A stretch of DNA of 64,000 nucleotides from Candidatus Iainarchaeum sp. (GCA_017610205.1 JAFCCL010000007.1:57728-121727); one strand, 5' to 3'. Shown: positions 1,403 through 64,000, numbered from the stretch's first letter. The notes: generated by a model from the letters alone, not told the origin. Numbers and translations are program-made.

Positions 1403-2515
1403 CTATTTTTCAACGCAATACATTTTTAGCGGAGTGCATTTTTCCAAATCCTTTGAGGCCTTTTTGCCAAGCACTTCTTTAAAGTGTTTTGGAGTAAGGC
1501 CGTTGTTTGGCCGCCTGATGATAATGTTTTCTTTGGATAAGATTTCGCCTGCTTTAACGTCTTCCTTTACCCAGATTGAGGGCCTGAAAATTATATTTTT
1601 TGCTTCTTCTTCACCAGGACCATAAGAAGGAGTTCCAAGCATTGTTTTTGTAGTTGGATTTGTTTTGTCAATGGAAATGTTTTCCTTTTCTACCAGCCTT
1701 ACCTTTTCAACTAAAGCGCTGAATTCTTGTGGTTCTAAAGAAAAAGCAGCGTCAGGTCCGCCTTCATCTCTTAAAATAATTAAGTGCTTTTCAATTACAC
1801 AGGCACCAAGCTGTGTTGCGATGACTGCATCTTCTGTACCAGGAACATGGCTTGAAAGACCTGAGAGAACAGAGAAATTTTTCTCAAGTTCTGGAATTGT
1901 TGCAAGGTTCATTTCTTCTGGTTTGGCAGGGTAAGAGCTGATGCAGTGAAGAAGGATAATATTTGGACAGCCTGCTTGCTTAAGGGTTTGAATTGCAAGC
2001 GCTATCTCTTCCTTGCTGCAAAGACCGGTTGACATTATTACCGGTTTCTTTGTTTGCCCAATTTTTTTAAGCAAGGGAATGTGAACAACTTCAAAGGAAG
2101 AAACCTTGTACAAGGAAACATTCATTTTTTCAAGAAAGTCAACTGCTGTAGCGTCAAAAGGCGCAGAGAAAAGGAAAAGTCCTTTTTCTTCAGCGTATTC
2201 TTTGAGCTTTGGTTGCCATTCCCAGGGAGTGTGAGCTTCTTTGTAAAGGCTGTATAATGTTCTGCCTTTCCAGAGATTGTCTTCGGTTATTACAAAAAAT
2301 TCGTTTTCACAATTTAAGGTAATTGTGTCAGCAGTGTAGGTTTGAAGCTTTACTGCGTCTGCTCCTGCTGCAGCTGCAGCGTCAATTATTTCAAGCGCCT
2401 TGTCATAGCTTTGGTGATGATTTGCAGACATTTCTGCAATTATGAAAGCAGACTGGTTTTGGCCAATTTTTCGCTTTAGCTTGCCTTGCCTTAATTCAAA
2501 TTCTTGCACTGGCAT
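1403..2515 (-). CDS. pseI: NeuB/PseI-family (pseudaminic/sialic acid) synthase with C-terminal SAF domain
   Basis: Motifs IIAEMSANH, GADAVKLQTY, KPVIMSTG, LLHCISSYP, IEKH and a SAF-like tail. Start moved to ATG 2515. Confidence 0.85.
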   Translation of the reverse strand: MPVQEFELRQGKLKRKIGQNQSAFIIAEMSANHHQSYDKALEIIDAAAAAGADAVKLQTYTADTITLNCENEFFVITEDNLWKGRTLYSLYKEAHTPWEWQPKLKEYAEEKGLFLFSAPFDATAVDFLEKMNVSLYKVSSFEVVHIPLLKKIGQTKKPVIMSTGLCSKEEIALAIQTLKQAGCPNIILLHCISSYPAKPEEMNLATIPELEKNFSVLSGLSSHVPGTEDAVIATQLGACVIEKHLIILRDEGGPDAAFSLEPQEFSALVEKVRLVEKENISIDKTNPTTKTMLGTPSYGPGEEEAKNIIFRPSIWVKEDVKAGEILSKENIIIRRPNNGLTPKHFKEVLGKKASKDLEKCTPLKMYCVEK

Positions 2516-2607
2516 AGAAAGAAAATGGCGTGAAATGTTATTTAAATGAATTCTTGCAGGGCTTGTACCCAAAAATGTTTAAATAGCTTGAAGGCAAGGA
2601 TATTATT

Positions 2608-3057
2608 ATGAGTAGAGCCAGTTTGTATGGGAGAAGACCAAATCCTGGGAGGAAAACTAGAACTGGGCAGGACAGGGTTGAACTCGCACAAAAACTTGCA
2701 GGACCCGGAGGAAGAGTTTCAAAGGGTTTGGCTAAAAGTCTTGATGAAAGCCTTGGAAGAAGGCGGGTTAGGAAATTGCTTAAGGCAAACTTTTCTTTTC
2801 CGGCAATTGAACGCTGGTTGAATGTTTATGGCAGCAATAGAACTACTTTAAAGCATTTGATGGATGTGGTTAGTCCAAAGTTTCCAATGACGTTTTACAA
2901 TATTTTGGGATGGGAAAGGTTCAAAATGGTTGTAAAGCATGTTGGAGGCCTTTCAAAGGAGAAATTAAAAATAATTTTAAATGAGGCAAAAGCTGGAAAA
3001 AGCGGGAAAGAACTTGTTGAAATGATTAAAAGCAATTTTAAAGGAAAAAGGTTTTGA
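2608..3057 (+). CDS. Hypothetical basic protein with Arg-rich N-terminus
   Basis: 149-aa ORF with a TTTAAATA TATA-like box about 30 nt upstream, so probably leaderless. Confidence 0.7.
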   Translation: MSRASLYGRRPNPGRKTRTGQDRVELAQKLAGPGGRVSKGLAKSLDESLGRRRVRKLLKANFSFPAIERWLNVYGSNRTTLKHLMDVVSPKFPMTFYNILGWERFKMVVKHVGGLSKEKLKIILNEAKAGKSGKELVEMIKSNFKGKRF

Positions 3058-3231
3058 TGGAATAAAAATGCCTTGTGGTAAGAACCATCAGAAAAAAATC
3101 TAAAACCCAAAATTCAGCCTTTAATAAAGTGTTTTTAAAGCTTTTGGAATAAGAGATTGTAATTGAGAGTTAGTGGTTTCCAATTTCTCCATAAAAGAAT
3201 TGGTGGCGAATTCAGTTTGGAGGTATAGAAA

Positions 3232-4509
3232 ATGGCTGATAAACCACACGTTAACCTTGTCTTTATTGGACACGTTGACCATGGAAAAAGTACACTGGTT
3301 GGAAGACTTTTGTATGACTCAGGCGCATTGCCTGAACAAGAATATAGAAAACTTGAGGCTGAGGCAAAATCTGTTGGAAAGGGAACCTTTGCATTTGCTT
3401 TTGCAATGGACAACCTTAAAGAAGAAAGGGAGCGAGGGGTAACAATTGACGTTTCCTACAAGAAATTTGAAGGAAAAAAGAACAATTTTACCATAATTGA
3501 TGCACCAGGCCACAAGGACTTTATTAAAAATATGATTACCGGAACAAGTCAGGCTGACGCCGCTGTTTTGGTTATTGCTGCAAAAGAAGGCGTAATGGCA
3601 CAGACAAAAGAACACGCTTTCCTTGCACAGGTAATGGGCTTAAAGCAGCTTATTATTGCAGTAAACAAAATGGACGAAGTCAACTATGATGAGGCAAAAT
3701 TCAAAGAAGTTCATGAACAAGCAGAAAAGCTTCTAAAAGGTGTTGGATATAAAGGAGAGCAAATGAAATTTATCCCGGTTTCTGCATGGGTTGGAGACAA
3801 CGTTGCAAAGAAATCTGACAAAATGACATGGTATAAGGGACCAGCACTAATAGATGCTTTGGATGAAATTATTCCGCCAAAACCACCGACAAATAAGCCT
3901 CTAAGACTACCTGTTCAAGATGTATACAACATCAAGGGCGTAGGAATTGTGCCAGTCGGAAGGGTTGAAACAGGAATTGTAAAGCCAGGTGATAAAATAA
4001 TTGTTGAGCCAAGCGGAGCAACAGGTGAAATAAAAACACTTGAAATGCACCATGAGCAATTGAAACAGGCAATTCCAGGCGACAACATTGGCTTTAATGT
4101 AAGAGGACTTGAAAAGGGAGACATTGCAAGAGGCGATGTAATCGGACCAGTAAGTGACCCACCAACTGTAGCAAAAGAATTCGAAGCACAGATTGTGGTT
4201 TTGTCACACCCTACAGCAATACCTGTTGGATACACTCCAGTATTCCACCTTCACACAGCCCAGCTTTCATGTAAAATAACAGAAATTTTGAAAAAGCTGG
4301 ACCCTAAAACAGGCCAAACAAAGGAAGAAAATCCAAAATTCCTGAAAACAGGAGACGCAGCAATTGTAAAGATTGTGCCAACCAAGCCGGTTGTAGTGGA
4401 AGAATATAAGAAATTCCCACAGCTTGGCAGATTTGCAATCAGGGACATGGGCCAGACTGTTGCGGCAGGAATGGTCACAAAGGTTGTGCCAAGGGAGAAA
4501 AAGAAGTAA
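3232..4509 (+). CDS. tuf: Elongation factor EF-1 alpha
   Basis: Motifs [34 protein letters not shown]; SD GGAGGT upstream. Confidence 0.99.
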
Positions 4510-4539
4510 TTTTGGAATACATAAAAAGTAAATAAAACA

Positions 4540-4571
4540 GGGAAACAGTGCTTTTACTGTTTTCCTTTTTT
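4540..4571 (+). terminator. Hairpin plus U-tract between tuf and uS10
   Basis: GGGAAACAGTG-cttt-TACTGTTTTCC forms 11 bp (including G-U pairs), followed by T6. Confidence 0.5.
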
Positions 4572-4600
4572 CCATTTTTTTTAAGCAAAGGTGAACATGG

Positions 4601-4909
4601 ATGCAAAAAGCAAGAATTAAACTGACATCTCCTGAATTTGGGCAGATAACAGAAATCTCTCAAAGAATGGTTGAAATTGCAGAAAGAACAGGTGTTAAGC
4701 ATTCAGGAATTATCCCCTTGCCAACCAAAAAACTAATTGTGCCAACAAGGAAATCTCCCTGCGGCGGCGGAACAGAAAGCTATGAAAGATGGCAATTAAG
4801 AATTCATAAAAGACTAATTGACGTTGAAGCAGACGAGCGAACCCTTAGAAGAATTATGAGGGTTGAAATCCCAGAATCAGTTCACGTTGAAATAGAATTA
4901 AAAGAATAG
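4601..4909 (+). CDS. rps10: 30S ribosomal protein S10 (uS10)
   Basis: GIIPLPTK, RKSPCG, RIHKRLID. Confidence 0.98.
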   Translation: MQKARIKLTSPEFGQITEISQRMVEIAERTGVKHSGIIPLPTKKLIVPTRKSPCGGGTESYERWQLRIHKRLIDVEADERTLRRIMRVEIPESVHVEIELKE

Positions 4910-4968
4910 GACTTTAAGACGAAACTGTTTTAAATAACACAACCCTATTTCTTTTGAGGGATTCAAAA

Positions 4969-5490
4969 ATGCAGTATTATATCGGCTCAGACCACGCAGG
5001 ATTTAACCTTAAGGAAATTATTAAGGAAAAGCTTAAGGGCAAGTACAAGTTTGAGGATATGGGAACCTTTTCTGCTACAAGAATCGATTATGCAATAGTT
5101 GGCTTTGAGGTTGCAAAAAAGGTTGCATCTGAAAAAAATGCAATTGGAGTATTAATTTGCGGGACAGGAATTGGAATGAGCATGGTTGCAAACAAGGTTC
5201 CAGGAATAAGGGCAGCACTGATTTATGACGGATTTACAGCAAAAATGGCAAGGCAACACAATAATGCAAACATTGCATGCATTGGAGCAAGAAAGATTTC
5301 ACCGCAGGCAACAATTTCAATTATTGACACCTTTTTGTCAGCAGGCTTTGACGGAAATAAGAAAGGCGGAGAAAGGCATAAGAAAAGGGTAGAGCAGATA
5401 GTGGCAATTGAAAAAGAGCATTTTAAGGAAGATGCAATTAAAAAAGGATTTTCTCTGGAAAACCTGTTTGGCAGCAAAAAAAAGGTTTAA
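4969..5490 (+). CDS. rpiB: Ribose-5-phosphate isomerase B
   Basis: GSDHAG, CGTGIG, ANKVPGIRA, ARQHNNAN, RHxxRV. Confidence 0.95.
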   Translation: MQYYIGSDHAGFNLKEIIKEKLKGKYKFEDMGTFSATRIDYAIVGFEVAKKVASEKNAIGVLICGTGIGMSMVANKVPGIRAALIYDGFTAKMARQHNNANIACIGARKISPQATISIIDTFLSAGFDGNKKGGERHKKRVEQIVAIEKEHFKEDAIKKGFSLENLFGSKKKV

Positions 5491-5519
5491 ATAAAACTCT
5501 TTTCCTATTAGATTATTTT

Positions 5520-5954
5520 ATGGGCAAACAGATTTATCCAGAACCAACTGTGGGGGCACTTATATTGAATGAAAAGAAAGAAGTACTGCTTTGCAAAAGC
5601 CCTAAATTTAACGGAAAATTCATTGTGCCAGGTGGGCATGTGGAGGTAGGAGAAACGCTTGAGCAGGCGATGAAGCGAGAAATAAAGGAAGAAACAGGGC
5701 TTGAAATAGAGCCTGTGAAATTTATTGCTTTTTACAATGCGATTTATCCAAAGGATTTTTTTGAAAAACGGCACTTCATTTTCTTTGATTTCCTTTGCAG
5801 GGCAAAAGAAGGTGCAAGGGAATGCCTGGACAATGAGGAGTTAATTAAGGCTGTTTGGATTAAACCAAAAAAGGCATTGAAAGAATTGAATCTTGAACTT
5901 TACACTCAAAAAACTATTGAAACCTACCTTGAAGGTGAAAAAGGCAATGTTTGA
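5520..5954 (+). CDS. NUDIX hydrolase
   Basis: Nudix box GGHVEVGETLEQAMKREIKEETGL. Confidence 0.93.
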   Translation: MGKQIYPEPTVGALILNEKKEVLLCKSPKFNGKFIVPGGHVEVGETLEQAMKREIKEETGLEIEPVKFIAFYNAIYPKDFFEKRHFIFFDFLCRAKEGARECLDNEELIKAVWIKPKKALKELNLELYTQKTIETYLEGEKGNV

Positions 5955-6366
5955 ATTGTTTGAGCACAAGGCCGATGCAGGCGTAAGAGGAGTTGGCAAA
6001 AGCAAAGAGGAAGCATTTGCAGAATGCGCAAAGGCAATGTTTTCTGTAATGGCTGATTTGAAAAAAATTGGTTCCGAAGAAAAGTTCGATGTAGAGATTG
6101 AAACAAATGACCTTGAAAGCCTTTTGGTTGATTTCCTAAACCATTTGCTTTACCTAAGAGATGTGAATGAAATGCTGTTCAGTAGGTTTGACTTATACAT
6201 AACAAATGATGGCGGTGGATGGAAGCTTAGGGGAAGGGCATTCGGAGAAAAAATTAATAAGGAAAAGCACGGCATTAAATCAGATGTCAAGGCCGCAAGC
6301 TATCACCAGCTCAAAGTTGTGGAAAAGAACGGGAAATGGCTTGCGCAATGTGTTGTGGATGTGTAG
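5947..6366 (+). CDS. Archease (RtcB cofactor)
   Basis: FEHxAD at the N-terminus, VKAASYH, C-terminal VVDV; directly upstream of rtcB. Confidence 0.95.
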   Translation: MFELFEHKADAGVRGVGKSKEEAFAECAKAMFSVMADLKKIGSEEKFDVEIETNDLESLLVDFLNHLLYLRDVNEMLFSRFDLYITNDGGGWKLRGRAFGEKINKEKHGIKSDVKAASYHQLKVVEKNGKWLAQCVVDV

Positions 6367-6369
6367 GGC

Positions 6370-7803
6370 ATGATGTTTAAAAAAATTAAGGAAGGCATTT
6401 GGGAAATGCCAAAGCAGGGGCAAATGAAGGTCCCCGCGAGAATTTTTGCCACTGAAAAGCTTTTTGGAGATATTGAACAGGGTGCAATGCAGCAGGCGGT
6501 TAATACCGCGCAGTTGCCGGGAATTCAGAAAGCTGCTTTGGGAATGCCTGATTTGCATTTTGGCTATGGTTTCCCAATCGGGGGAGTTGCCGCTTTTGAT
6601 GAAAAAGAAAAAGGGGTTGTAAGCCCTGGCGGAATCGGATTTGATATAAATTGCGGAATAAGGCTTATCAGAACAAATTTGGCTGCCGAAGACATTAAGC
6701 CAAAGCTTCCAGAGCTCATGGATTTGCTGTTTAAGCTTATTCCGGCAGGGGTTGGCCAAAAGGGCAAAATCAGGGTGGAAAAAAACGAGCTTGCCGAGAT
6801 TTATAGCAGGGGAGCAAGGCATATGGTTGAAAAGGGCTTTGGATGGAAACAGGATTTGGAGAGAATTGAGGAAAAGGGTCGCATGAAAGAGGCAAACCCT
6901 GAAAAGGTCAGTGAAAAGGCTTTCAAAAGGGGAATGCCGCAGATCGGAACTTTGGGGGCTGGGAACCATTTTGTGGAGGTCCAGGCAGTTGAAAAGATTT
7001 TTGATAAAGATATTGCAAAAAGCTTTGGCTTGTTTGAAGGACAGGCTGTTGTAATGCTGCATTCCGGAAGCAGGGGAACAGGGCACCAGATTGCAACAGA
7101 TTACATAAGCGTTATGCAAAAGGCAATGGAAAAATACGGCATTAAAGTCAATGACAGGCAGCTTGCCTGCACCCCTATTGAAAGCCAAGAAGGAAAGGAT
7201 TACCTAGAGGCAATGTGGTGCGGCGTAAACTATGCCTTTGCAAACAGGCAGGCAATGTCCCATTGGATTAGGGAGGGGTTTGAACAGGTTTTTGGGCAGG
7301 ATGCTGAAAGCCTTGAAATGGAAGTTGTTTACGATGTTTGCCACAATGTGGCAAAGTTTGAAAAGCACAAAATAAACGGAAAGGAAAAAGAACTGCTTGT
7401 GCACAGGAAAGGGGCAACAAGGGCGATGCCAAAGGGCAGGCCTGAAAATCCGAAAATTTATGCAAAAACAGGGCATCCTGCAATAATTCCCGGAAGCATG
7501 GGCACAGCATCCTATGTTCTTGTTGGCACAGAAACAGGGCTGAAAGAAAGCTTTGCATCAGTATGCCATGGGGCAGGAAGGGCAATGTCAAGGCATGAAG
7601 CAATGAGGAAAAAAAGCGGAGAGCAGGTCAAAAAAGAGCTTGAAGCAAAAGGCGAAGTTATCAAAGGCAAAAGCCTGGCTGGCTTGGCTGAAGAAATGCC
7701 GGAAGCCTACAAAGACATTGATGAAGTAATTGAAAGTGTTGTCTTGTCAGGAATTGGAAAAAAGGTTGCAAGGCATTTGCCGCTCGCGGTAATGAAAGGA
7801 TAA
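6370..7803 (+). CDS. rtcB: RtcB tRNA-splicing/RNA ligase
   Basis: MPDLHxGYGFPIG, DINCG, GNHFVE, HSGSRG, HRKGAT, HGAGR, AYKD. Confidence 0.98.
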   Translation: MMFKKIKEGIWEMPKQGQMKVPARIFATEKLFGDIEQGAMQQAVNTAQLPGIQKAALGMPDLHFGYGFPIGGVAAFDEKEKGVVSPGGIGFDINCGIRLIRTNLAAEDIKPKLPELMDLLFKLIPAGVGQKGKIRVEKNELAEIYSRGARHMVEKGFGWKQDLERIEEKGRMKEANPEKVSEKAFKRGMPQIGTLGAGNHFVEVQAVEKIFDKDIAKSFGLFEGQAVVMLHSGSRGTGHQIATDYISVMQKAMEKYGIKVNDRQLACTPIESQEGKDYLEAMWCGVNYAFANRQAMSHWIREGFEQVFGQDAESLEMEVVYDVCHNVAKFEKHKINGKEKELLVHRKGATRAMPKGRPENPKIYAKTGHPAIIPGSMGTASYVLVGTETGLKESFASVCHGAGRAMSRHEAMRKKSGEQVKKELEAKGEVIKGKSLAGLAEEMPEAYKDIDEVIESVVLSGIGKKVARHLPLAVMKG

Positions 7804-7840
7804 CTCAAAACCAGGGAAAAAACGAGAAAGGAATGAGGGA

Positions 7841-8008
7841 ATGAAAATGCGACATTTAGTAATGCCAAGAAGGACACTGGACTATCTTTTGATGGGAATT
7901 GTTGCAGGGATAATTGCAGGATTAATTTTGGTTTACATAGGCGGAATCACGTATTATGGCATAATTCAGGCCTCTGAAAGCATTAAAATGGGCTTTAAAA
8001 CCCCCTAA
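7841..8008 (+). CDS. Small single-pass membrane protein (55 aa, not in the ORF track)
   Basis: MKMRHLVMPRRTLDYLLMGIVAGIIAGLILVYIGGITYYGIIQASESIKMGFKTP. GAGGGA lies immediately upstream; one hydrophobic helix with GxxxG repeats. Confidence 0.6.
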   Translation: MKMRHLVMPRRTLDYLLMGIVAGIIAGLILVYIGGITYYGIIQASESIKMGFKTP

Positions 8009-8079
8009 AAACAGCAAATAAGTAACTTTATTCAGTTAATCAGTAACATTTAAATACTTGGAGTACTGCAGTTTTTATA

Positions 8080-9735
8080 ATGAGACTAAAGATTGCATTA
8101 CTTGGACTTGCACTCATTGTTAGTGCAGAAGCTGCAATCTGTGACAATATTTGGATTGGCGCAGAAGATATTGTAATGAAAAGGGCAGATACTGAATATT
8201 TTTATTTTCCAATTTACAACGATTATGACAAAGATTTTGACACTTATGCAATTGAGGTCTGGAGAGACACAGGCGAATTTGACGTAAGCCTTGTTGATTA
8301 CACTGAAGTAATAGATGCTGAGGGAGAAGGTGAAATAACAATCAGGGTTGAAACAGGAAATTTGGACGAAGAAAGTTTTGGTCAGGCTTATATCAAAATA
8401 AGAGGAGAATTTGATGATGAAAGATACTGCGGTTTTACGCAGATTGATGAAACCTATTTTGATGTAATTGTTGAAATGGATGAAAGCAAGCCAGGATGTA
8501 ATGACATCAGAATTGATGCATTTAATGTTTACATAAATGAAAATTCAACAGAAACAGTTTCGTTTGAAATTGAAAACAGATCCGGGGAAGATTTTGGCCT
8601 TTACGACATTGACTTAGAGGAAAACAGCAGCTATTTTGATGCGTGGATTTATAGCATGCCATCTATTGTAAGAGATGATGACAATGAAACTTTTAGAGTA
8701 AAAATAGAGTCAAACAGTGTAAGTGAAGAAAGACAGGGAACAGTCAGCATTGAAGCAAAAGGAATGTTTGACAATGGAGATTATTGTTCTTTCAGCAATA
8801 TTGACGAAGAAGAATTCACAGTATTTGTTGAAAACAGCTCAGGAAGCCAAAACACTTCAAATACCCAGGAAGATTCAGAAATAGAACTTGTTGCAAGCAC
8901 TGTGCAGGCCGAAAGAGGAAGAACAGGATATGCAACACTTTTCCTTGAAAACAATGCCGAAGAAAATTTTCTTGTAGATTATATTGGAATTTTTGACTTA
9001 AGTTCAAATTTTAAAGCAGAAGAATCAGGATATGAAAAAACAGTCCCTGCATTTGGAAGCTCTTACATAAATGTAAAAGTTAACGCATATGATTACGCAA
9101 GCATTGGAAACTACGAAGCATATTTAGAAATTGCAGGACATTATCAAAATGGAAAACAAGTGCATATTTTTGGCGACAGCCTTGGCACATTCCCTGTAGA
9201 AATTGTGGAAAAACGTGTTTTTGAATATGCAAATTCTGAACCGGTTGGTCAGGAAACCTGCTCTTACTTTTCACTCATTGTTCCAAGCAAAGCAAACATT
9301 GAAGAAAGCGGAACAGTTCCAATAACAGTTGACAACAGAAGCTATGACAGAGCAACAATAAGGCTTTACGGAGCAGGACTTACAGCAGAGCCAATGCTTA
9401 TTTCTGTTCCAAAAAACACACTTATTTCAGAAAATGTATTTGTTTCCAGTGTTTTGAATGAAACAAATCTTGTTTACAAAATTGAAGCCCCTGGCTGCAA
9501 CATTGAGAAAAGAACCGCAATAATTTCAACGGTTGCAGAACAAGATAAAGGAGAAGAAGGCGAAAATGAAACAGGAAAAGATGAAACAGACGAAAATGAG
9601 ACAATCTTTCCCTTTGGCACAACAGGCTTTGTTGCTTTGGGGCAGGCAGGCGCAGTTCTTGGCATTCTTGTGCTTGCAGTAATAGTAATTTTTCTTATTT
9701 TTAGGCGACCTAAAAAACCACAAACACTTTTTTAA
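8080..9735 (+). CDS. Acidic secreted surface protein with repeated beta-rich domains and a C-terminal membrane anchor
   Basis: Signal peptide, about three related ~120-aa units, a TTGFVALG motif, then a TM helix and RRPKK. TATA TTTAAATA at 8049. Confidence 0.8.
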   Translation: MRLKIALLGLALIVSAEAAICDNIWIGAEDIVMKRADTEYFYFPIYNDYDKDFDTYAIEVWRDTGEFDVSLVDYTEVIDAEGEGEITIRVETGNLDEESFGQAYIKIRGEFDDERYCGFTQIDETYFDVIVEMDESKPGCNDIRIDAFNVYINENSTETVSFEIENRSGEDFGLYDIDLEENSSYFDAWIYSMPSIVRDDDNETFRVKIESNSVSEERQGTVSIEAKGMFDNGDYCSFSNIDEEEFTVFVENSSGSQNTSNTQEDSEIELVASTVQAERGRTGYATLFLENNAEENFLVDYIGIFDLSSNFKAEESGYEKTVPAFGSSYINVKVNAYDYASIGNYEAYLEIAGHYQNGKQVHIFGDSLGTFPVEIVEKRVFEYANSEPVGQETCSYFSLIVPSKANIEESGTVPITVDNRSYDRATIRLYGAGLTAEPMLISVPKNTLISENVFVSSVLNETNLVYKIEAPGCNIEKRTAIISTVAEQDKGEEGENETGKDETDENETIFPFGTTGFVALGQAGAVLGILVLAVIVIFLIFRRPKKPQTLF

Positions 9736-30155: not shown

Positions 30156-30272
30156 GCAGGGGTTCCCGAGCGGTCAAAGGGGCGGGACTTAAGTTGTATT
30201 TCATTTATTTAAGAGGTGCATGAGAAATCCCGTGACTTAGTGTCTTCGGGGGTTCGAATCCTCCTCCCTGCA
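30156..30272 (+). tRNA. tRNA-Leu(UAA) with a 33-nt intron at 37/38 (30194-30226); CCA not encoded
   Basis: Acceptor stem GCAGGGG/TCCCTGC, anticodon stem CGGGA/TCCCG, long variable arm, GTTCGAAT T-loop. Canonical BHB: CUUA/UGAG helix, 3-nt bulges, 8-bp intron stem. Usual rpoD-tRNA-Leu-L18e position. Confidence 0.95.
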
Positions 30273-57813: not shown

Positions 57814-58113
57814 ATGTCTAAAACTATTGCTGTTTTTAAACGAGGGAATATTCTTCGCTATCCAAGATTGGATACTGTTTTGATGGTTGAAGAAACAATA
57901 CAGAAAGCAAAAGAATATCCAACTAAAGCAGAACTTTTGCGTAGCCTGCCCAAGAAAATGATGTACCAGACATTTAACACTATAATCGATTATCTTGAAT
58001 ATTCTGGAAAAATTTATATAGATAAAGATGGCGCAATTGTTTGGATTTGGAATCCAAAACTTGTGGAAAAGTATATGAAAAGACCAGATCTTAGCTGGAG
58101 GAAAGAAAAATGA
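57814..58113 (+). CDS. Small wHTH-like protein, putative antitoxin/repressor
   Basis: 99 aa, YPRLDTVLMVE...IIDYLEYSGKI; ATGA overlap with the next gene. Confidence 0.7.
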   Translation: MSKTIAVFKRGNILRYPRLDTVLMVEETIQKAKEYPTKAELLRSLPKKMMYQTFNTIIDYLEYSGKIYIDKDGAIVWIWNPKLVEKYMKRPDLSWRKEK

Positions 58114-58455
58114 AACTTCCTTCAAAAATCAAATTTGCAGACGATAAAGTAAAAAAGGCATTTGAAAAACTTGAAGAAGGAAAAACAGAAGACACACAAC
58201 TTCATGAATTTCTTGTAAGAGCATTCGAGGACATTGAAAAAAACGCTTTTTGGGGAACAAGAATCTCAAAAAAACTCATTCCAAAAGAATACAAAAAAAA
58301 ATATGAAATAGACAATCTTTGGAAATATAATCTTCCAAACGCCTGAAGACTTATTTACTCTGTTGAAAAAAAAAGAATTAATTGTAATCGGAATTGTTCT
58401 TGAATGGCTTGACCACAAAAATTATGACAAAAAATTCGGTTACAAAACAAGCTGA
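58110..58455 (+). pseudogene. RelE/ParE-like toxin disrupted by a TGA and an A9 frameshift
   Basis: LWKYNLPNA*RLIYSV, then a one-base shift at 58366-74 gives ELIVIGIVLEWLDHKNYDKKFGY. Confidence 0.7.
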
Positions 58456-58489: not shown

Positions 58490-59092
58490 ATGAAACTAAT
58501 AGCACAGGGAGCAGAAGCAAAATTATTCAAAACAAAGTTTGATGGCAAAGATGCTTTGCTAAAGCAGCGTGTTCCAAAAGGATACAGATGCAGGGAACTT
58601 GACGAAATGCTTCGAAGTACCAGAACAAACGCTGAAGCAAACATGTTTAGAAAAGCAAGAGCTCTTGGAATAAACACTCCCACAATTTTTGAAGTTGACA
58701 AAAAGAAAAAAGAAATTGTAATGGAATTCATTAATGGACCTCGCTTAAAAGATACATTGAAAAAGAAAAACCTTGCAGTATGCAAACAGGTTGGGCAAAT
58801 GATTGCATTAATGCATGCAGGAAACCTTGTCCACGGGGACCTTACAACAAGCAACATAATGCTAAAAAACAAAGACCTTTTCTTCATTGACTTTGGATTG
58901 GGAAAAACCAGTGCAAAAGCAGAAGACAAAGCAGTTGACCTCCTTGTCTTCAAGAAAACCTTTGAGGCAACACACGTTGAACTAATGCCAAAGGGCTGGA
59001 ACCAAGTCCTCGAAGGATACCTTTCAAAAGGCGGAAAAAAAGAGGTCTTGAAGCAAATGGAAAAGGTTGAAGGAAGGGTAAGGTACCATTAG
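58490..59092 (+). CDS. bud32: KEOPS kinase/ATPase Bud32
   Basis: QGAEA, K.R.PK.YR..LD, HGDLTTSN, IDFGL, EDKAVDL, GRVRY. Confidence 0.96.
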   Translation: MKLIAQGAEAKLFKTKFDGKDALLKQRVPKGYRCRELDEMLRSTRTNAEANMFRKARALGINTPTIFEVDKKKKEIVMEFINGPRLKDTLKKKNLAVCKQVGQMIALMHAGNLVHGDLTTSNIMLKNKDLFFIDFGLGKTSAKAEDKAVDLLVFKKTFEATHVELMPKGWNQVLEGYLSKGGKKEVLKQMEKVEGRVRYH

Positions 59093-59180
59093 GCAATGAT
59101 GAGGTTAACACCTGCTGACCGAAAGGAATGAGGACAAACTCAACTTTGAGTCTAACAGGTCATTGGATCTACTGAGACAC
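59091..59180 (+). ncRNA. Box C/D guide sRNA with an extended D-guide region
   Basis: C box ATGATGA 59096-102, 12-nt spacer, D' CTGA 59115-18, CC-GAAA-GG hairpin, C' ATGAGGA 59128-34, D CTGA 59172-75, then a T5 tract. Confidence 0.8.
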
Positions 59181-59200
59181 CCTTTTTAGCAAGCCGATAA

Positions 59201-59245
59201 ATTTATATTATAATTATACCATTATAGTTAAATTGTGATATAAAT
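59201..59245 (+). promoter_or_regulatory. Inverted repeat over the AbiE promoter/start
   Basis: ATTTATATTATAATT-N15-AATTGTGATATAAAT. Confidence 0.5.
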
Positions 59246-59876
59246 GAAATACAGGATTTTGGTACGGCGCTTGCTGCTCAGGAAAGAAAGGTATGTTTCA
59301 GACAAGGAATTAAAAGAGCTATGCAAAAGGCTTAAGCTTGAGTATGAAAACGCATTAACTTATCTCTACAACAAAAAATATTTGGACAGGATAGTCAGGG
59401 GTTTTTTTTATATTCCTTCAGCAGAAGCGCACAGGCTTAAAACTGGCGGGCCAAGCTTCCCAAAGGCAATGGCAAAAGCAATGGAATACAAAAAAGTAAA
59501 AAATTGGTACTTTGGATTGGAAACCGCAATAAAGCTGAATAACATTACTCATGAGTTTTTCACAATCGACTATGTTGTTTCAGACAAAATATTCAGGGCA
59601 AAACCGTTTAAAATTCTTGGAAGAAAAGTCAAGTTTGTGAAACTAAGCAAAAAACTTTTTGGCTTTGGAATAAAAAAATCCAAAAACACGCTTTACTCGG
59701 ATTTGGAAAAAACCATTCTGGACATAATCCACCTACGCAAATACTCCGGAGAAAGCAATAAGGCAATAAGGGATTATGTAATTGAATGGGCAGATGAAGC
59801 AGACAAAAACAAAATGAAAAAATACTCAAAACACTACAGCAAATCAGTAAGAAACGCTTTAGAGGAGTTAAAATGA
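59244..59876 (+). CDS. AbiEi-like type IV antitoxin
   Basis: wHTH with RIVRGFFY, WYFGLETA, FGFGI and YSDLEKTILD; lies upstream of AbiEii. Confidence 0.8.
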   Translation: MKYRILVRRLLLRKERYVSDKELKELCKRLKLEYENALTYLYNKKYLDRIVRGFFYIPSAEAHRLKTGGPSFPKAMAKAMEYKKVKNWYFGLETAIKLNNITHEFFTIDYVVSDKIFRAKPFKILGRKVKFVKLSKKLFGFGIKKSKNTLYSDLEKTILDIIHLRKYSGESNKAIRDYVIEWADEADKNKMKKYSKHYSKSVRNALEELK

Positions 59877-59901
59877 GTTTCAAATTCAGGAGGAATTTGA
59901 A

Positions 59902-60834
59902 ATGATTCCAACAGACTTAATTGAAAAGATTTCAAGAGACCTAAAAATAAGAGAAACACAGCTGATTGAAAAAGACCTATACTTGCAGGCCCTGCTTACG
60001 AAACTCTCAAAATCAAAATACTTCTCAGAAAACTTTGTATTTAAAGGGGGAACCTGCCTGACCAAAGCATACTTTGGATACTATCGTTTCTCCGAAGACC
60101 TGGATTTTACCTGGATAAACCAAAAAGGATTTGAAGGCAAATCAGAAAACCAGATAAGAAAAATGCTCTCAAAAGAAATCAACAAGATAATGGAAATAAT
60201 TGAAAAAATCGCAAAAGAACTCGACCTAGAATTTAAACCAGTGAAATCAGACAAACATTATGTCCAGCTTGGTGGAAGCAACAGGTTTGTAACGTTCAAG
60301 CTATGGTACACACCAGCCACAGAAGAAAGAAAAACATTCATAAAAATACAGTTAAACTTTGTTGACAAAATATTCCACAAGCCAAAAAAGCACAAGCTAA
60401 AAGCAATAGGAAGTGCTCAAAAAGAAGAACTGGAAATGGAATACCCAGAATATTCTGTTTACACAATATCAAACCCAACATTTTACTGCTATGACCTCAA
60501 AGAAATTGCAGCAGAAAAAATCAGGGCCCTGTTGACAAGAAGAGGATTCAAAGCAAGAGACATCATTGATTTGTATTACCTGGCCAGAGAAGGAGCAACA
60601 ATACCAGCAGTAAAGAAAATGGCAATTGAAAAAACCAAATTCATGTTCAAGTATTTGAAGTATGCAGACAACCTGAAAAACAAGAAATTTGAAGAAAAAT
60701 TCAAGTTAGGGGAAGAAGAACGGCTTATGATAGAAGAAACAAGCAAAGGCTTTGAAAAATTTGCAAACAAAACACTCAAAGAACTGAACGAATTAGCCGA
60801 AGAAGCAAGGCTTAAGGCCAGCAAAAAGGGATGA
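59902..60834 (+). CDS. AbiEii/AbiGii nucleotidyltransferase toxin
   Basis: IEKD, FKGGTCL, YRFSEDLDF, EKIRAL, RDIID. Confidence 0.93.
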   Translation: MIPTDLIEKISRDLKIRETQLIEKDLYLQALLTKLSKSKYFSENFVFKGGTCLTKAYFGYYRFSEDLDFTWINQKGFEGKSENQIRKMLSKEINKIMEIIEKIAKELDLEFKPVKSDKHYVQLGGSNRFVTFKLWYTPATEERKTFIKIQLNFVDKIFHKPKKHKLKAIGSAQKEELEMEYPEYSVYTISNPTFYCYDLKEIAAEKIRALLTRRGFKARDIIDLYYLAREGATIPAVKKMAIEKTKFMFKYLKYADNLKNKKFEEKFKLGEEERLMIEETSKGFEKFANKTLKELNELAEEARLKASKKG

Positions 60835-60838
60835 TTGC

Positions 60839-61459
60839 ATGAATCCTGAAAAATTGTCTTTTGACAACATTTCTGATTTAAAAAAAGTTATGCGTATTCC
60901 ACTTGAAAAAATTGACTTTGTCTCAGCGGAAGAAATAATAAAAACAATGCAGTCAGCGGATGAAAAAATTACAGTCCACCTTTACCCAATGCCAACATTA
61001 AAAAGAGCAGAAAAATGCCTCTTGGATTACGCCAAATGGAGTTACCACCAAATATACCTTGCAATTAAAGAGGGAAACATATACTGTTGCACTGGGCATG
61101 GAAACTCAAGCGGTGCAAGAGCAACTCACAACCATCTAATTGAATTAATCCTTAAAAACAAAAAACTGCAGGAAGAAATCCCAACTGCTGTAGTGGTAAC
61201 ATTCAAAGGAAATACCATAGCATATTATTTCAACAAGAAATACGCATATTTGAACCACGATATTGGAAGCAACTGGGATAGAAAAATATGCAGTAAACTG
61301 ACAAAAAGCAAGATGCCTTTTTCGGAAAAGAACTGCCTGAAAAACAGGGGGATGGAAATTGTATTCAAAACAAAAACAATGAAAACCACGATATTCAAAG
61401 CAGTCCAAAATGACGGGTTTTTGGAAAAGTTTATGAGAGGCCTGAAAAATGAAGCTTAA
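60839..61459 (+). CDS. Hypothetical protein
   Basis: 206-aa ORF tightly packed between the toxin and SWIM genes; no motif recognised. Confidence 0.7.
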   Translation: MNPEKLSFDNISDLKKVMRIPLEKIDFVSAEEIIKTMQSADEKITVHLYPMPTLKRAEKCLLDYAKWSYHQIYLAIKEGNIYCCTGHGNSSGARATHNHLIELILKNKKLQEEIPTAVVVTFKGNTIAYYFNKKYAYLNHDIGSNWDRKICSKLTKSKMPFSEKNCLKNRGMEIVFKTKTMKTTIFKAVQNDGFLEKFMRGLKNEA

Positions 61460-63092
61460 GGGCATCACTGAAGATGACATCCTCGACTTTGCTGACTCAA
61501 CAATTATTGCAGCAAGGGGGCTTGATTATTACGAAACTGGGATGGTAAAATCTTTCAGGGTGGAAGGAGAAAGGATTATGGCAAAAGTGGCTGGAAGCCG
61601 GGGGAAATATGATACTGAAGTAGGGGTTGAAAATGGAGAACTTGATGCGAGCTGCAATTGCCCATATGAAGGTTATTGTTGTAAGCATATAGCAGCAGTG
61701 CTTTACAAATGGATTAATGAAAAAGGCAAAACACAAAACAAATCGACAAAGAATCAAAAAATAGTTGATCTGAAAAAAGAACTTTCAAAAGTGGAAAAAA
61801 CAAAACTCGAAGAAATATTACAGCAAATTGCCCAAAAAGACGAAGGAATAAAGGCAGACATACTCACAGCAATAGCAAAATCCGGCTCCAATGAAAATCC
61901 AGCAGTGAAACGCATAATAGAAAGGCAGATAAAAGAAACACTGTCTGAGGAGAGTTATAGTTATTATGAAGTCCACGGACTTGTAAGGGAGCTTGATGAG
62001 TTAAAAGAACGCATACTCAACTGCCCACCAAAAACAAGGACAGAACTCCTAAAGGAAATTATAGAAAAAACAATTAAAGCTGGCCAAAATTCTGATGATT
62101 CTAATGCCGATATCAGCACTTTTGTACAGATGAGCCTTGAAGAACTTGGAAAGGCACTTGGAGAGCAAAACCTGCCCTTTGAAGAAAAAAAGAAAATAAT
62201 AACTGAAAATCTTGAACTATATGAAAAAGACGATTATGGCTTTGAAGAAAGCCGGCTTGAACTTGTAATTGGTGTTCCAAAGTCCAAGGCCGAATATGAC
62301 TTTCTGATTGAGAAACTAAGGCGAAAAATTTCAAGAAAAAAAGACAAGTATGAAAGAAGCGACTATGAAGAAGCCCTTACTGAAACTTACAGAAGAAGCG
62401 GAATGGAAAAAGAGTACCTTGAAATTCTGGAAAAGAACATGCGTAAAGACGGCGAATTCCTGCCACTTGCAAAATTCTGGAAAGAAAAGGGCCAAATTAA
62501 CAAGGCTGCACAAATAGCGAAGAAAGGTATAAAGAAAGGCTGCAAGAGCTGGCACGACAATGGGCTTTATGATTTACTTGAGGAAATTTACAGGTCTCAG
62601 AAAAAAAAGGAGGATTTGCTTAGAATAATGATTTTACACTTTGAACAGAGTCCATCGCTTACAAAATACAAAGAAATACTCTCACTTTCAAAGAAACACA
62701 AAAATTTGGAAAAACTCAAGAAGAACCTGATTTCTAAGGCAGAAGACAATGAGCTTATTGATATTTTACTTTTTGAAAACATGCTTGAAAAAGCCTTTGA
62801 AGAAGCTATGAAACTAGATGGTGCTTATTCTGACAGAACAAAGGACAAGGTTGCAAAAGCACTGATGAAAAAGCACCCGAAAAAATCCCTCAAAATATAC
62901 AAATCACTTGTAAGCGAATTCATTAACATGGCAAAAAGAGACTCGTATATAACAGCATCATTGTACTCCAAAAAAGTAAAAGAATTATTACATAGAATGG
63001 ATAAAGTTGAAGAATGGAAAAATTATGTGGCAGGAATAAGGGAATCAAACAAAAGAAGACCTGCACTAATTGAAGAATTCAGGAGATTATAA
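61449..63092 (+). CDS. SWIM zinc-finger protein with a helical-repeat C-terminus
   Basis: RG..YY..G.V, A.V.GS, CNCPY..CCKH, C-terminal RRPALIEE. Confidence 0.88.
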   Translation: MKLKGITEDDILDFADSTIIAARGLDYYETGMVKSFRVEGERIMAKVAGSRGKYDTEVGVENGELDASCNCPYEGYCCKHIAAVLYKWINEKGKTQNKSTKNQKIVDLKKELSKVEKTKLEEILQQIAQKDEGIKADILTAIAKSGSNENPAVKRIIERQIKETLSEESYSYYEVHGLVRELDELKERILNCPPKTRTELLKEIIEKTIKAGQNSDDSNADISTFVQMSLEELGKALGEQNLPFEEKKKIITENLELYEKDDYGFEESRLELVIGVPKSKAEYDFLIEKLRRKISRKKDKYERSDYEEALTETYRRSGMEKEYLEILEKNMRKDGEFLPLAKFWKEKGQINKAAQIAKKGIKKGCKSWHDNGLYDLLEEIYRSQKKKEDLLRIMILHFEQSPSLTKYKEILSLSKKHKNLEKLKKNLISKAEDNELIDILLFENMLEKAFEEAMKLDGAYSDRTKDKVAKALMKKHPKKSLKIYKSLVSEFINMAKRDSYITASLYSKKVKELLHRMDKVEEWKNYVAGIRESNKRRPALIEEFRRL

Positions 63093-63113
63093 AGAAACAA
63101 CTGGTGAAAAACA

Positions 63114-63680
63114 ATGAAAAAACTATTCCCATCATTTGCTAATCCAGACACCTGGAGAAACAACATCCAAAAAAGGATAACAAGAAAGCAATGGAGAAAA
63201 ATAAGGCAGAGAATTCTTGAAAGAGATGACTTCACCTGCCAATACTGCGGCTTCAAAGCAGAAAAATGGCAGATAGTACATCACACAGACGGCAACCCAA
63301 ATAATAATAGCGAGAGTAACCTAATGACAATCTGCCAGATGTGTAATCTAATCGAACACGCAGGAATGGGCTGCATAATACAAGGGATAGTTGACATGTA
63401 CAAAAAATCAAAATACCGCCAAAACGAAATAATTGCAAAAACCAGGGAAATGCGAGCTAAAGGAAAAAGTGATGCAGAAATACTCAGAGATCTTGGCTTA
63501 GAAGAGAAAGTTGAATTCAAGCAGGATTGGAATTACTTAAGACCATTATTTGGTTTTATAACCTCAAGAAAGGCTTCAGACTACAAAAGCAACATTGCAC
63601 TTGAATACGAATACGAAGTAGAAAGAAAGCAAACTGATGAAGAAAAAGGCAAAATCATGCCATTAAGCGATTTTGAATAA
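63114..63680 (+). CDS. HNH endonuclease-family protein
   Basis: W..IR..ILERD..TCQYCG, VHH.DGN..NN...NL...CQMC...EH. Confidence 0.88.
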   Translation: MKKLFPSFANPDTWRNNIQKRITRKQWRKIRQRILERDDFTCQYCGFKAEKWQIVHHTDGNPNNNSESNLMTICQMCNLIEHAGMGCIIQGIVDMYKKSKYRQNEIIAKTREMRAKGKSDAEILRDLGLEEKVEFKQDWNYLRPLFGFITSRKASDYKSNIALEYEYEVERKQTDEEKGKIMPLSDFE

Positions 63681-63757
63681 AACAACTCCCAGAAAACTGT
63701 TAATTTTAAGCAATCATTACCATACGATGTATAAGGCAATTATGAGGTTAACGCTTG

Positions 63758-63786
63758 AAAAGTGGTAGGTGTTACCACCACTTTTT
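63758..63786. terminator. Bidirectional hairpin between convergent genes
   Basis: AAAAGTGGT...ACCACTTTT (9 bp) with inner GGT/ACC. Confidence 0.5.
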
Positions 63787-63867: not shown

Positions 63868-64000
63868 TCAACAGTTCGATTCTTCACAACCGCAGCCGTA
63901 GTAGCTATAGAATATTTTCTGATCTTTATCATCTACTATGCCGTCACCATTGGGATCATACCTAACATCCCAACCAAGACTAGAAGGAGTCTCACCAACA
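63868..64000 (-). CDS. C-terminal fragment of a dockerin/EF-hand-like protein (runs off the window)
   Basis: The minus frame reads ...WDVRYDPNGDGIVDDKDQKIFYSYYGCGCEESNC*, containing a DxNGDGxVD Ca-binding loop. Confidence 0.65.
   Translation of the reverse strand, partial: VGETPSSLGWDVRYDPNGDGIVDDKDQKIFYSYYGCGCEESNC

Follow-up and report, generated by a model that had tools for sequence, protein, structure and literature searches.

Evidence for a box C/D sRNA gene as an integrase attachment site in a Candidatus Iainarchaeum lineage, and a five-gene defence block between two of its cores

Can the gene of a small guide RNA serve mobile elements as a point of entry into an archaeal chromosome? 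The question is raised by a stretch of 64,000 nucleotides from Candidatus Iainarchaeum sp. (GCA_017610205.1, JAFCCL010000007.1:57728-121727; G000:C13:57728-121727 in our numbering), called here the window and counted from its first letter, in which the beginning of a box C/D small RNA (sRNA) gene recurs beyond five defence-related genes, 243 nt before the end of contig C13. A first-pass annotation of the window had proposed that the sRNA gene is an attachment (att) site at which the defence block was integrated. For the lineage, this use of a C/D guide RNA gene is now well supported by sequence comparison, because an integrase clade lies beside the site (8/9 loci, against 0/19 in the control), because repeats of the site bound whole islands and because an occupied site can be set against an intact one. 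For the block in the window, the case is circumstantial.

The repeat and the integrases beside it

The repeat pair and its immediate surroundings comprise the following features.

59092..59104, plus strand: proximal att-type core GGCAATGATGAGG, identical to the core flanking integrase islands
63700..63734, plus strand: promoter-like region with TTTTAAG about 25-31 nt upstream, of the type seen before chromosomal sRNA copies in relatives
63735..63757, plus strand: distal partial copy, with core GGCAATTATGAGG, a broken box C and a mutated D' guide
63758..63786, plus strand: hairpin and T-run, holding TAGGTGTTACC (63766-76), complementary to the guide

Re-alignment upheld the two copies and their three mismatches. 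The proximal 24-mer AGGCAATGATGAGGTTAACACCTG (59091-59114) and the distal AGGCAATTATGAGGTTAACGCTTG (63734-63757) are identical at 21 of 24 positions, and 23 of 27 when the pairing is extended to 59088-59114 and 63731-63757; the chance expectation for a 24-nt match is 0.00 in 100 dinucleotide-preserving shuffles of the window. One of the mismatches, a G-to-T change in the distal copy, turns ATGATGA into ATTATGA and destroys box C, as had been noticed. The duplicated part is indeed the 5' end of the sRNA, as it also is in the islands of relatives; the homology of the distal copy stops before the D' box and box D is absent from it. The near reverse complement of the guide described past the distal copy was likewise recovered, behind a spacer of 8 nt (63758-65) and within the hairpin, which folds with a minimum free energy of -16.6 kcal/mol (z -2.1). 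The homologous unit G005:C125:1146 loses this fold (z 0.6), and a conserved guide/anti-guide hairpin, considered from wobble-compatible differences between the two units, was dropped on that score. Metagenome scans for the distal core with its hairpin, as an exact 38-mer and in a degenerate version, returned 0 loci each. The region at 63700..63734 resembles the sequence upstream of G006:C10:15989 and G001:C98:10984, and we infer a promoter role for it.

The first-pass annotation had tied the 24-mer to two places. Both are real, yet they belong to a multi-copy family: the core GGCAATGATGAGG(TTAAC) is present in 14 copies in this 1.37-Mb genome (10 exact over the 13-nt core, one with one mismatch, three with two), spread over contigs C2 (two), C10 (three), C13 (two), C19 (one) and C20 (six), and 12 places of the genome match the 24-mer with at most five mismatches. 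All 14 cores lie between open reading frames (ORFs) and keep a single orientation within each contig. A further 34 of the 48 places matching the 13-mer with at most two mismatches were left out as chance matches, having no family flanks and falling mostly in ORFs; the four inexact copies were kept for the flanks that they hold in common with the family. Full sRNAs occur at C10:112859 (canonical), on C13 and at C20:30960, and the remaining copies consist of a TATA-like upstream region and the core, diverging at graded points from +14 to +27. Beyond this genome, the 18-mer is present in 28 of 41 related genomes (0/41 for the reversed control pattern), congeners show 2-17 core matches each at up to one mismatch, and several genomes carry 2-4 full-length sRNA paralogues. 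Wide occurrence of the 24-mer as an unrelated motif had been named as a finding that would speak against an att site. The sequence does occur widely, but as att-type copies of the same sRNA gene.

Integrases were found at this core in relatives. On G004:C18, the gene of a 431-aa tyrosine recombinase begins 81 nt past a core. Used as a query in 151 genomes of the order, this protein gave ten matches of at least 39% identity, one of them cut by the contig start. In eight of the nine evaluable members of this clade of about 430 aa, a core lies 81-94 nt upstream on the same strand, against none within 250 nt upstream of the 19 evaluable distant integrases (at most 37% identity). The reverse approach, a scan for the core followed by N6 and CTATAG in one genome for each of 185,579 species, yielded 11 loci: in nine, the clade integrase follows at a distance of about 80 nt (contig ends truncate three of them), one holds only a 64-aa C-terminal remnant of it and one is unrelated. 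Several of these coincide by sequence with loci of the integrase search and four are additional. At L174 (1701-1933), the core and an integrase-type arm are followed by only the last 64 integrase residues (78% identity), an internal deletion that shows how integrase-less att relics arise. Scored against protein models, the clade integrase reaches 43-44 bits with TIGR02249 (integron integrase, cut-off 265) and 85-94 bits with XerA (cut-off 220), and is by these measures a generic tyrosine recombinase, not IntI.

Four islands (6-12.6 kb) could be followed from end to end within a single contig and are bounded by direct repeats of the core.

G020, 12,578 bp: right end with element promoter, core and canonical full sRNA
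G047, 6,109 bp: right end with element promoter, core and canonical full sRNA
G124, 12,222 bp: right end with a partial copy
G044, 10,488 bp: right end with a partial copy

The left end has the same composition in all four, namely promoter, core, CTATAG-type arm and integrase, and the perfectly repeated block measures 14-19 nt (GGC[A/G]ATGATGAGGT...). When the attP sites are reconstructed, element-specific inverted repeats of 10-11 bp flank the core in three of four, with CTATACATTAC/GTAATGTATAG in G020 and G047 and TATCTTCTAT/ATAGAAGATA in G124; in G044 a 10-bp repeat overlaps the core instead. Cargo genes encode a MazF-like toxin with a helix-turn-helix partner, a type III restriction-modification pair, an Hjc/Mrr-like nuclease, an AAA_14/DUF4143 ATPase and a 2'-5' ligase-like protein. 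At the place orthologous to the G044 attL, contig G077:C9 of a congener shares the left flank and continues with promoter, core and intact sRNA; on this alignment, G077 is the empty and G044 the occupied site.

These observations can be joined in a simple scheme for the relatives. The dedicated clade of about 430-aa tyrosine integrases would recombine at the core, with strand exchange falling inside GGCAATGATGAGGT. Integration would leave the resident promoter and core beside the integrase gene (attL) and would fuse the element-borne promoter and core to the sRNA body (attR), by which fusion the guide RNA gene would be rebuilt. The sites would themselves derive from the first 14-24 nt of the sRNA (5' stem, box C and start of the D' guide), a component of the best joint explanation that we hold with moderate confidence. 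Loss of the integrase and further core-by-core recombination would then produce arrays of integrase-less cassettes, and at least four contigs of this genome appear to carry such arrays.

The window itself contains no integrase, as the earlier annotation had stated, and the PF00589 matches of this genome all lie on other contigs (C14, C18, C3, C24 and C1). Three tyrosine integrases of 390-435 aa, at C18:40293, C3:179157 and C24:5356, stand just downstream of tRNA 3' ends (the tRNA beside C24:5356 appears to contain an intron) and, judged by this position, are classical tRNA-targeting elements. Around the distant integrases, ARAGORN recognized whole tRNAs in just 3 of 28 loci, a count that is uninformative because att fragments are partial. 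Transposases of the IS200/IS605 Y1 type, which the hairpins had suggested as an agent, have seven matches in the genome, none of them near a core.

The guide RNA and its ribosomal target

The sRNA gene starts on the last base of the bud32 stop codon and can be laid out as follows.

58490..59092, plus strand: bud32-type kinase gene (ORF; Pfam RIO1/Kdo/Pkinase matches; orthologues in 20/22 family relatives)
59092..59152, plus strand: full-length box C/D sRNA without a promoter of its own (from sequence and alignment)
59092-94, 59096-59102 and 59103-14: 5' part, with stem GGC, box C ATGATGA and D' guide GGTTAACACCTG
59115-18 and 59128-34: middle part, with D' box CTGA and C' box ATGAGGA
59135-45, 59146-49 and 59150-52: 3' part, with D guide, D-like box TTGA and stem GTC

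The junction with bud32 is its TAG stop (59090-59092), the final base of which is the first of the sRNA. Fourteen full-length copies in eight genomes align on these boxes, with a D' guide that is almost invariant. Among the terminal boxes of the proximal sRNA, AAUGAUGA is kept, but UUGA stands for box D and the GGC/GUC stem includes one G.U pair, so this copy is slightly off consensus; CUGA with a GGC/GCC stem is found in the paralogue C10:112859 and in 11 of the 14 full-length copies. Internal boxes are present, the D' CTGA lying 12 nt past box C and the C' box reading ATGAGGA, and the D guide is 11 nt long. Rfam reports no family at the gathering score at this place, which is weak evidence because archaeal C/D sRNAs are mostly lineage-specific.

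The likely target lies in the ribosome. Ribosomal RNA (rRNA) is unassembled in this genome and its congeners, and the target was judged from the large-subunit (LSU) rRNA of G023, G037 and G038, in which the D' guide is complementary to G(C/G)AGGTGTTAACT over 11-12 positions. In box C/D RNAs, the methylated nucleotide stands opposite the fifth position upstream of the D or D' box. Applied to these three more distant relatives, this rule designates the U of AGG[U]GUUAAC in the A loop, which we take to be the equivalent of E. coli U2552 in helix 92. Methylation of the A loop at the equivalents of U2552/G2553 is described as always present (PMC7994747). A role of the sRNA in guiding 2'-O-methylation of the LSU A loop is part of the best joint explanation, which we consider as a whole rather more probable than not. 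For the D guide, no convincing rRNA target was seen in these sequences; the sole match, with one mismatch, is in G023 beside an AT-rich insertion.

That insertion, of about 70-90 nt in a conserved part of domain V, is present in the LSU rRNA of G023 and G038 (around 4035-4115 and 4020-4100); G037 lacks it. It could represent a small intron or an expansion, and the one sequence close to the D guide is found at its edge. A variant of the sRNA itself was met in G005, where C145:974 and C47:6398 are half-size genes with a stem, box C, the A-loop guide, CTGA and a closing stem (GGCGAT...ATCGCC or GGC...GCC). Instead of dead fragments, they may be C/D RNAs with a single guide.

Routes to the five-gene block

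Between the two copies lie exactly five ORFs, in agreement with the earlier count.

59191..63682, plus strand: conserved five-gene module, collinear with G092:C2
59244-59876, plus strand: AbiEi (PADLOC E 8.7e-49)
59902-60834, plus strand: AbiEii (PADLOC E 2.2e-61; Pfam AbiEii E 7.1e-29)
60839-61459, plus strand: 206-aa protein of no family
61449-63092, plus strand: SWIM/DUF6880 protein (PADLOC candidate PDC-S62)
63114-63680, plus strand: HNH nuclease (family match)

The adjacent AbiEi and AbiEii genes are predicted to form a type IV toxin-antitoxin/abortive infection pair, and the 206-aa protein has no match in Pfam, PADLOC, NCBIfam or PHROGs. The module is 76% identical over 4,536 nt to G092:C2, from another family of the order, with five proteins at 70-75% identity in the same order; SWIM and HNH genes recur in G021, and among 196 genomes of the order just 3 carry the SWIM gene. 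Its scattered presence marks the module as a sporadic, horizontally moving defence cluster. The block around it is bounded on both sides by a direct repeat of part of the target gene and includes one intact gene copy, on the left, and between the module and the cores lie the sRNA body (left) and a chromosomal-type sRNA promoter (right). No step in GC content or skew was seen at the block borders, and composition accordingly gives the block no foreign mark.

The locus behind bud32 is variable. All six congeners differ downstream of this gene, and in 5 of 11 relatives the leader of the S15 gene follows it directly (about 60-230 nt), without the sRNA. In this genome, that conserved leader stands ahead of the S15 gene near the beginning of contig C19, with a core just before it at C19:368. 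The window closes on one further gene.

63868..64000, minus strand: 3' end of a gene for a Cys-rich secreted protein, running off the contig

The gene fragments at the end of C13 and the start of C19 are probably the two ends of this one secreted Cys-rich protein gene. The likely order is then bud32, core 1 with the full sRNA, the five genes, promoter with core 2 and hairpin, the surface-protein gene, core 3 and S15. In G005, a core is fused to bud32, with an integrase-type hairpin arm after it, and the S15 leader there has a core before it as well, which makes the bud32-S15 interval an insertion hotspot bounded by cores.

Elsewhere in this genome, segments between cores have changed places. 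Contig C10 reads left flank, core, cassette A (PCC and TBP), core, cassette B (two small DNA-binding proteins), core with full sRNA, right flank; G003:C65 reads core, B, core, A, left flank, core with full sRNA, right flank, and the homology blocks shared by the two start or stop inside cores. Cassette B (C10:111590-112880) is 98.7% identical to G003:C65 over 1,291 nt, against 66-84% for its flanks and 74-75% for ValRS and bud32 of the two genomes. On C20, the order YdjM, TreT, GT-GH15 becomes YdjM, GT-GH15, TreT in G004, a swap that rests on two contigs overlapping in homology, and the GT-GH15 cassette is 93-98% identical to G003. The core at C20:38820 sits within a 13-bp inverted repeat and, as we read it, resembles an attP-type junction, and the interval from C2:6827 to C2:4534 has the look of an integrase-less element of 2.3 kb whose arms match. 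Together, the swaps and the near-identity of cassettes across species point to a possible path for gene flow in lineages whose mobile elements are hardly known.

Two further observations concern these contigs. Cassette B includes, at C10:111883-112273, a 178-aa ORF with internal repeats of about 139 nt and Pfam matches of the SinI/NikA-like ribbon-helix-helix type. On C2, the LonB protease gene (2189-8967) seems to be interrupted, with about 4.8 kb between its N-terminal (around 2215-2811) and C-terminal (from around 7669) parts, which adjoin in at least 12 family relatives; the insertion, part of which is shared by G004, contains two sRNA cores and a multi-copy 83-aa ORF.

Set against these cassettes, the block of the window is best read as one more integrase-less cassette of the core system, an attribution that we judge somewhat better than even. 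The 4,643-bp segment would be one inter-core slot of the bud32-rpS15 hotspot, in the order core, sRNA body, AbiEi/AbiEii, 206-aa protein, SWIM, HNH, promoter and next core, and would have been placed or retained by recombination at the cores. Since the module is flanked by the sRNA body and a promoter, core-by-core excision would circularise a complete promoter-sRNA gene: a cognate integrase acting in trans is predicted to release a circle with the module and this gene, leaving bud32, a core and the hairpin behind. The block is probably immobile today, because its two cores have diverged.

Several findings weigh against this attribution. The polarity of the window is opposite to that of all four integrase islands, with the promoterless full copy first and the promoter-bearing partial copy last. 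The longest perfect stretches common to the two copies are 7 and 11 nt, compared with 14-19 nt in the islands of relatives; the CTATAG-type arm found beside integrases is missing after the distal core; and a search of this assembly (92% complete) turned up neither a cognate integrase nor a remnant of one. All compared genomes are drafts in which the repeats often fall at contig ends, and the C13-C19 join is itself inferred; mis-joins by the assembler are unlikely, though possible, because the repeats in common do not exceed 60 nt. The module moreover has a life apart from the core. Its homology with G092 ends 37 and 52 nt short of the two copies, on an 8.5-kb contig that carries no core, so the module can move with no core beside it. 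For the AbiE pair by itself (59179-60914), identity is 86% in G005:C136 and 77% in G004:C73, and the left boundary of this sub-module falls at 59179-59191 in three genomes regardless of cores.

These boundaries and the reversed polarity are what would be expected if the att system were real and the five genes had come by another route, through homologous recombination of flanks or mobility of the module as such. The proximal sRNA would then be an intact, unoccupied resident gene co-transcribed with bud32, and the distal copy a relic attL or the decayed tandem duplicate of a neighbouring event; it does bear a chromosomal-type promoter, as an attL would. We regard this course of events as rather unlikely, though it is the most serious competitor, in view of three facts: the format of the block (core, body, promoter, next core) is that of the demonstrably mobile inter-core cassettes, the AbiE pair of G005:C136 likewise has a core on either side (4,559 nt between the two) and other neighbours, and the fusion of bud32 to a core with an integrase-type arm in G005 shows that this exact junction serves as an att site. 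An origin of the copies by duplication, retroposition or movement like that of miniature inverted-repeat transposable elements (MITEs), with arrays shuffled by homologous recombination and no integrase, would suit the 2-4 full-length paralogues of several genomes and the missing cognate integrase, and it has a precedent in Pyrobaculum, for which sRNA duplications and a MITE-like, sRNA-resembling element in at least 15 copies have been described (PMC6009581). It leaves aside the adjacency of core and integrase (8/9 against 0/19), the nine integrases and one remnant among 11 pattern-first loci, the 14-19-nt repeats bounding the islands, the inverted repeats around the core in three of four attP sites and the direct comparison of empty and occupied sites. 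Identity over 13-24 nt is also short for homologous recombination, and altogether we find this origin improbable. A chance repeat in AT-rich intergenic DNA might be entertained in a region with many weak direct repeats. With none expected in shuffles, ten exact 13-mers with homologous flanks and no reversed control in 41 genomes, its probability is negligible.

Known systems and remaining features

Islands at tRNA and tmRNA genes, their accretion in tandem and integrase-less att-flanked elements (CIMEs) are well known. The system described here shares with them partial RNA-gene repeats as boundaries, integrase-less segments movable in cis or in trans and a defence-rich cargo; it differs in the class of gene used, in the duplication of a promoter-bearing 5' end and in reaching 14 copies in 1.37 Mb. 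Integrons, reported in Archaea too, likewise have one family of sites between short cassettes devoid of recombinase, variable cassette order and exchange between species. In contrast, the integrase here is of a non-IntI type, the sites are sRNA-gene cores with promoters and not attC hairpins, and this genome shows no single attI platform next to an integrase. An attC-like reading of GGTTAAC...GTTACC was tried against the R''/R' consensus and fitted poorly, in addition to the integrase not being IntI. Taken further, the arrays might amount to an integron-like cassette platform on an essential RNA gene, in which one integrase clade acts at the box-C end of the A-loop guide gene, promoter and core are copied at each recombination, and defence and metabolic cassettes are captured, put in new order and exchanged between species, AbiE-SWIM-HNH being one of them; we advance this only tentatively, as a possibility short of an even chance.

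The described targets of archaeal integrases are tRNA genes, intergenic sites and a small number of protein-coding genes (PMC8371274), and the terms 'sRNA', 'snoRNA' and 'non-coding RNA' do not occur in the text of that review. The nearest parallel in the same text is the pTN3-like tyrosine integrases of Thermococcales, which enter the 5' half of tRNA genes (PMC8371274). Both systems place the att site in the 5' portion of a gene for a small stable RNA and restore the whole gene, which is then expressed from a promoter brought by the element instead of its original one. Here, however, a C/D sRNA gene is the target, with a crossover region in the 5' stem and box C, and integrase-less cassettes form multi-copy arrays. 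The MITE-like C/D sRNA elements of Pyrobaculum resemble the present family in their number (about 15 copies in one archaeal genome) and in their rearranged paralogues, but they have terminal inverted repeats, and 'integrase' or 'integrat*' appears nowhere in that paper (PMC6009581); the copies described here consist of promoter and 5' core and bound gene cassettes and integrase islands. No report of a C/D sRNA gene as an att site, or linked to an integrase, was found in literature outside subscription journals and supplements.

Should the proposal hold, the list of known integration targets would gain a new class of conserved RNA gene, and the multi-copy sRNA fragments of these genomes would be explained. 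The core would also provide a sequence tag for defence islands and hotspots in small, poorly annotated archaeal genomes, and the integrase with its 14-19-bp core a natural integrase/att pair for archaeal genetic tools.

Two features of the window stand apart from the core system. Between ValRS and bud32, the segment 57763-58477 holds two small ORFs without a Pfam family (57814-58113 and 58110-58346), and its many partial copies on other contigs and in congeners (65-77% identity) point to a separate multi-copy small-gene element. At 30156-30272, in a window where ARAGORN predicts no tRNA, Rfam reports a tRNA over 117 nt (35.7 bits), probably an intron-containing archaeal tRNA gene.

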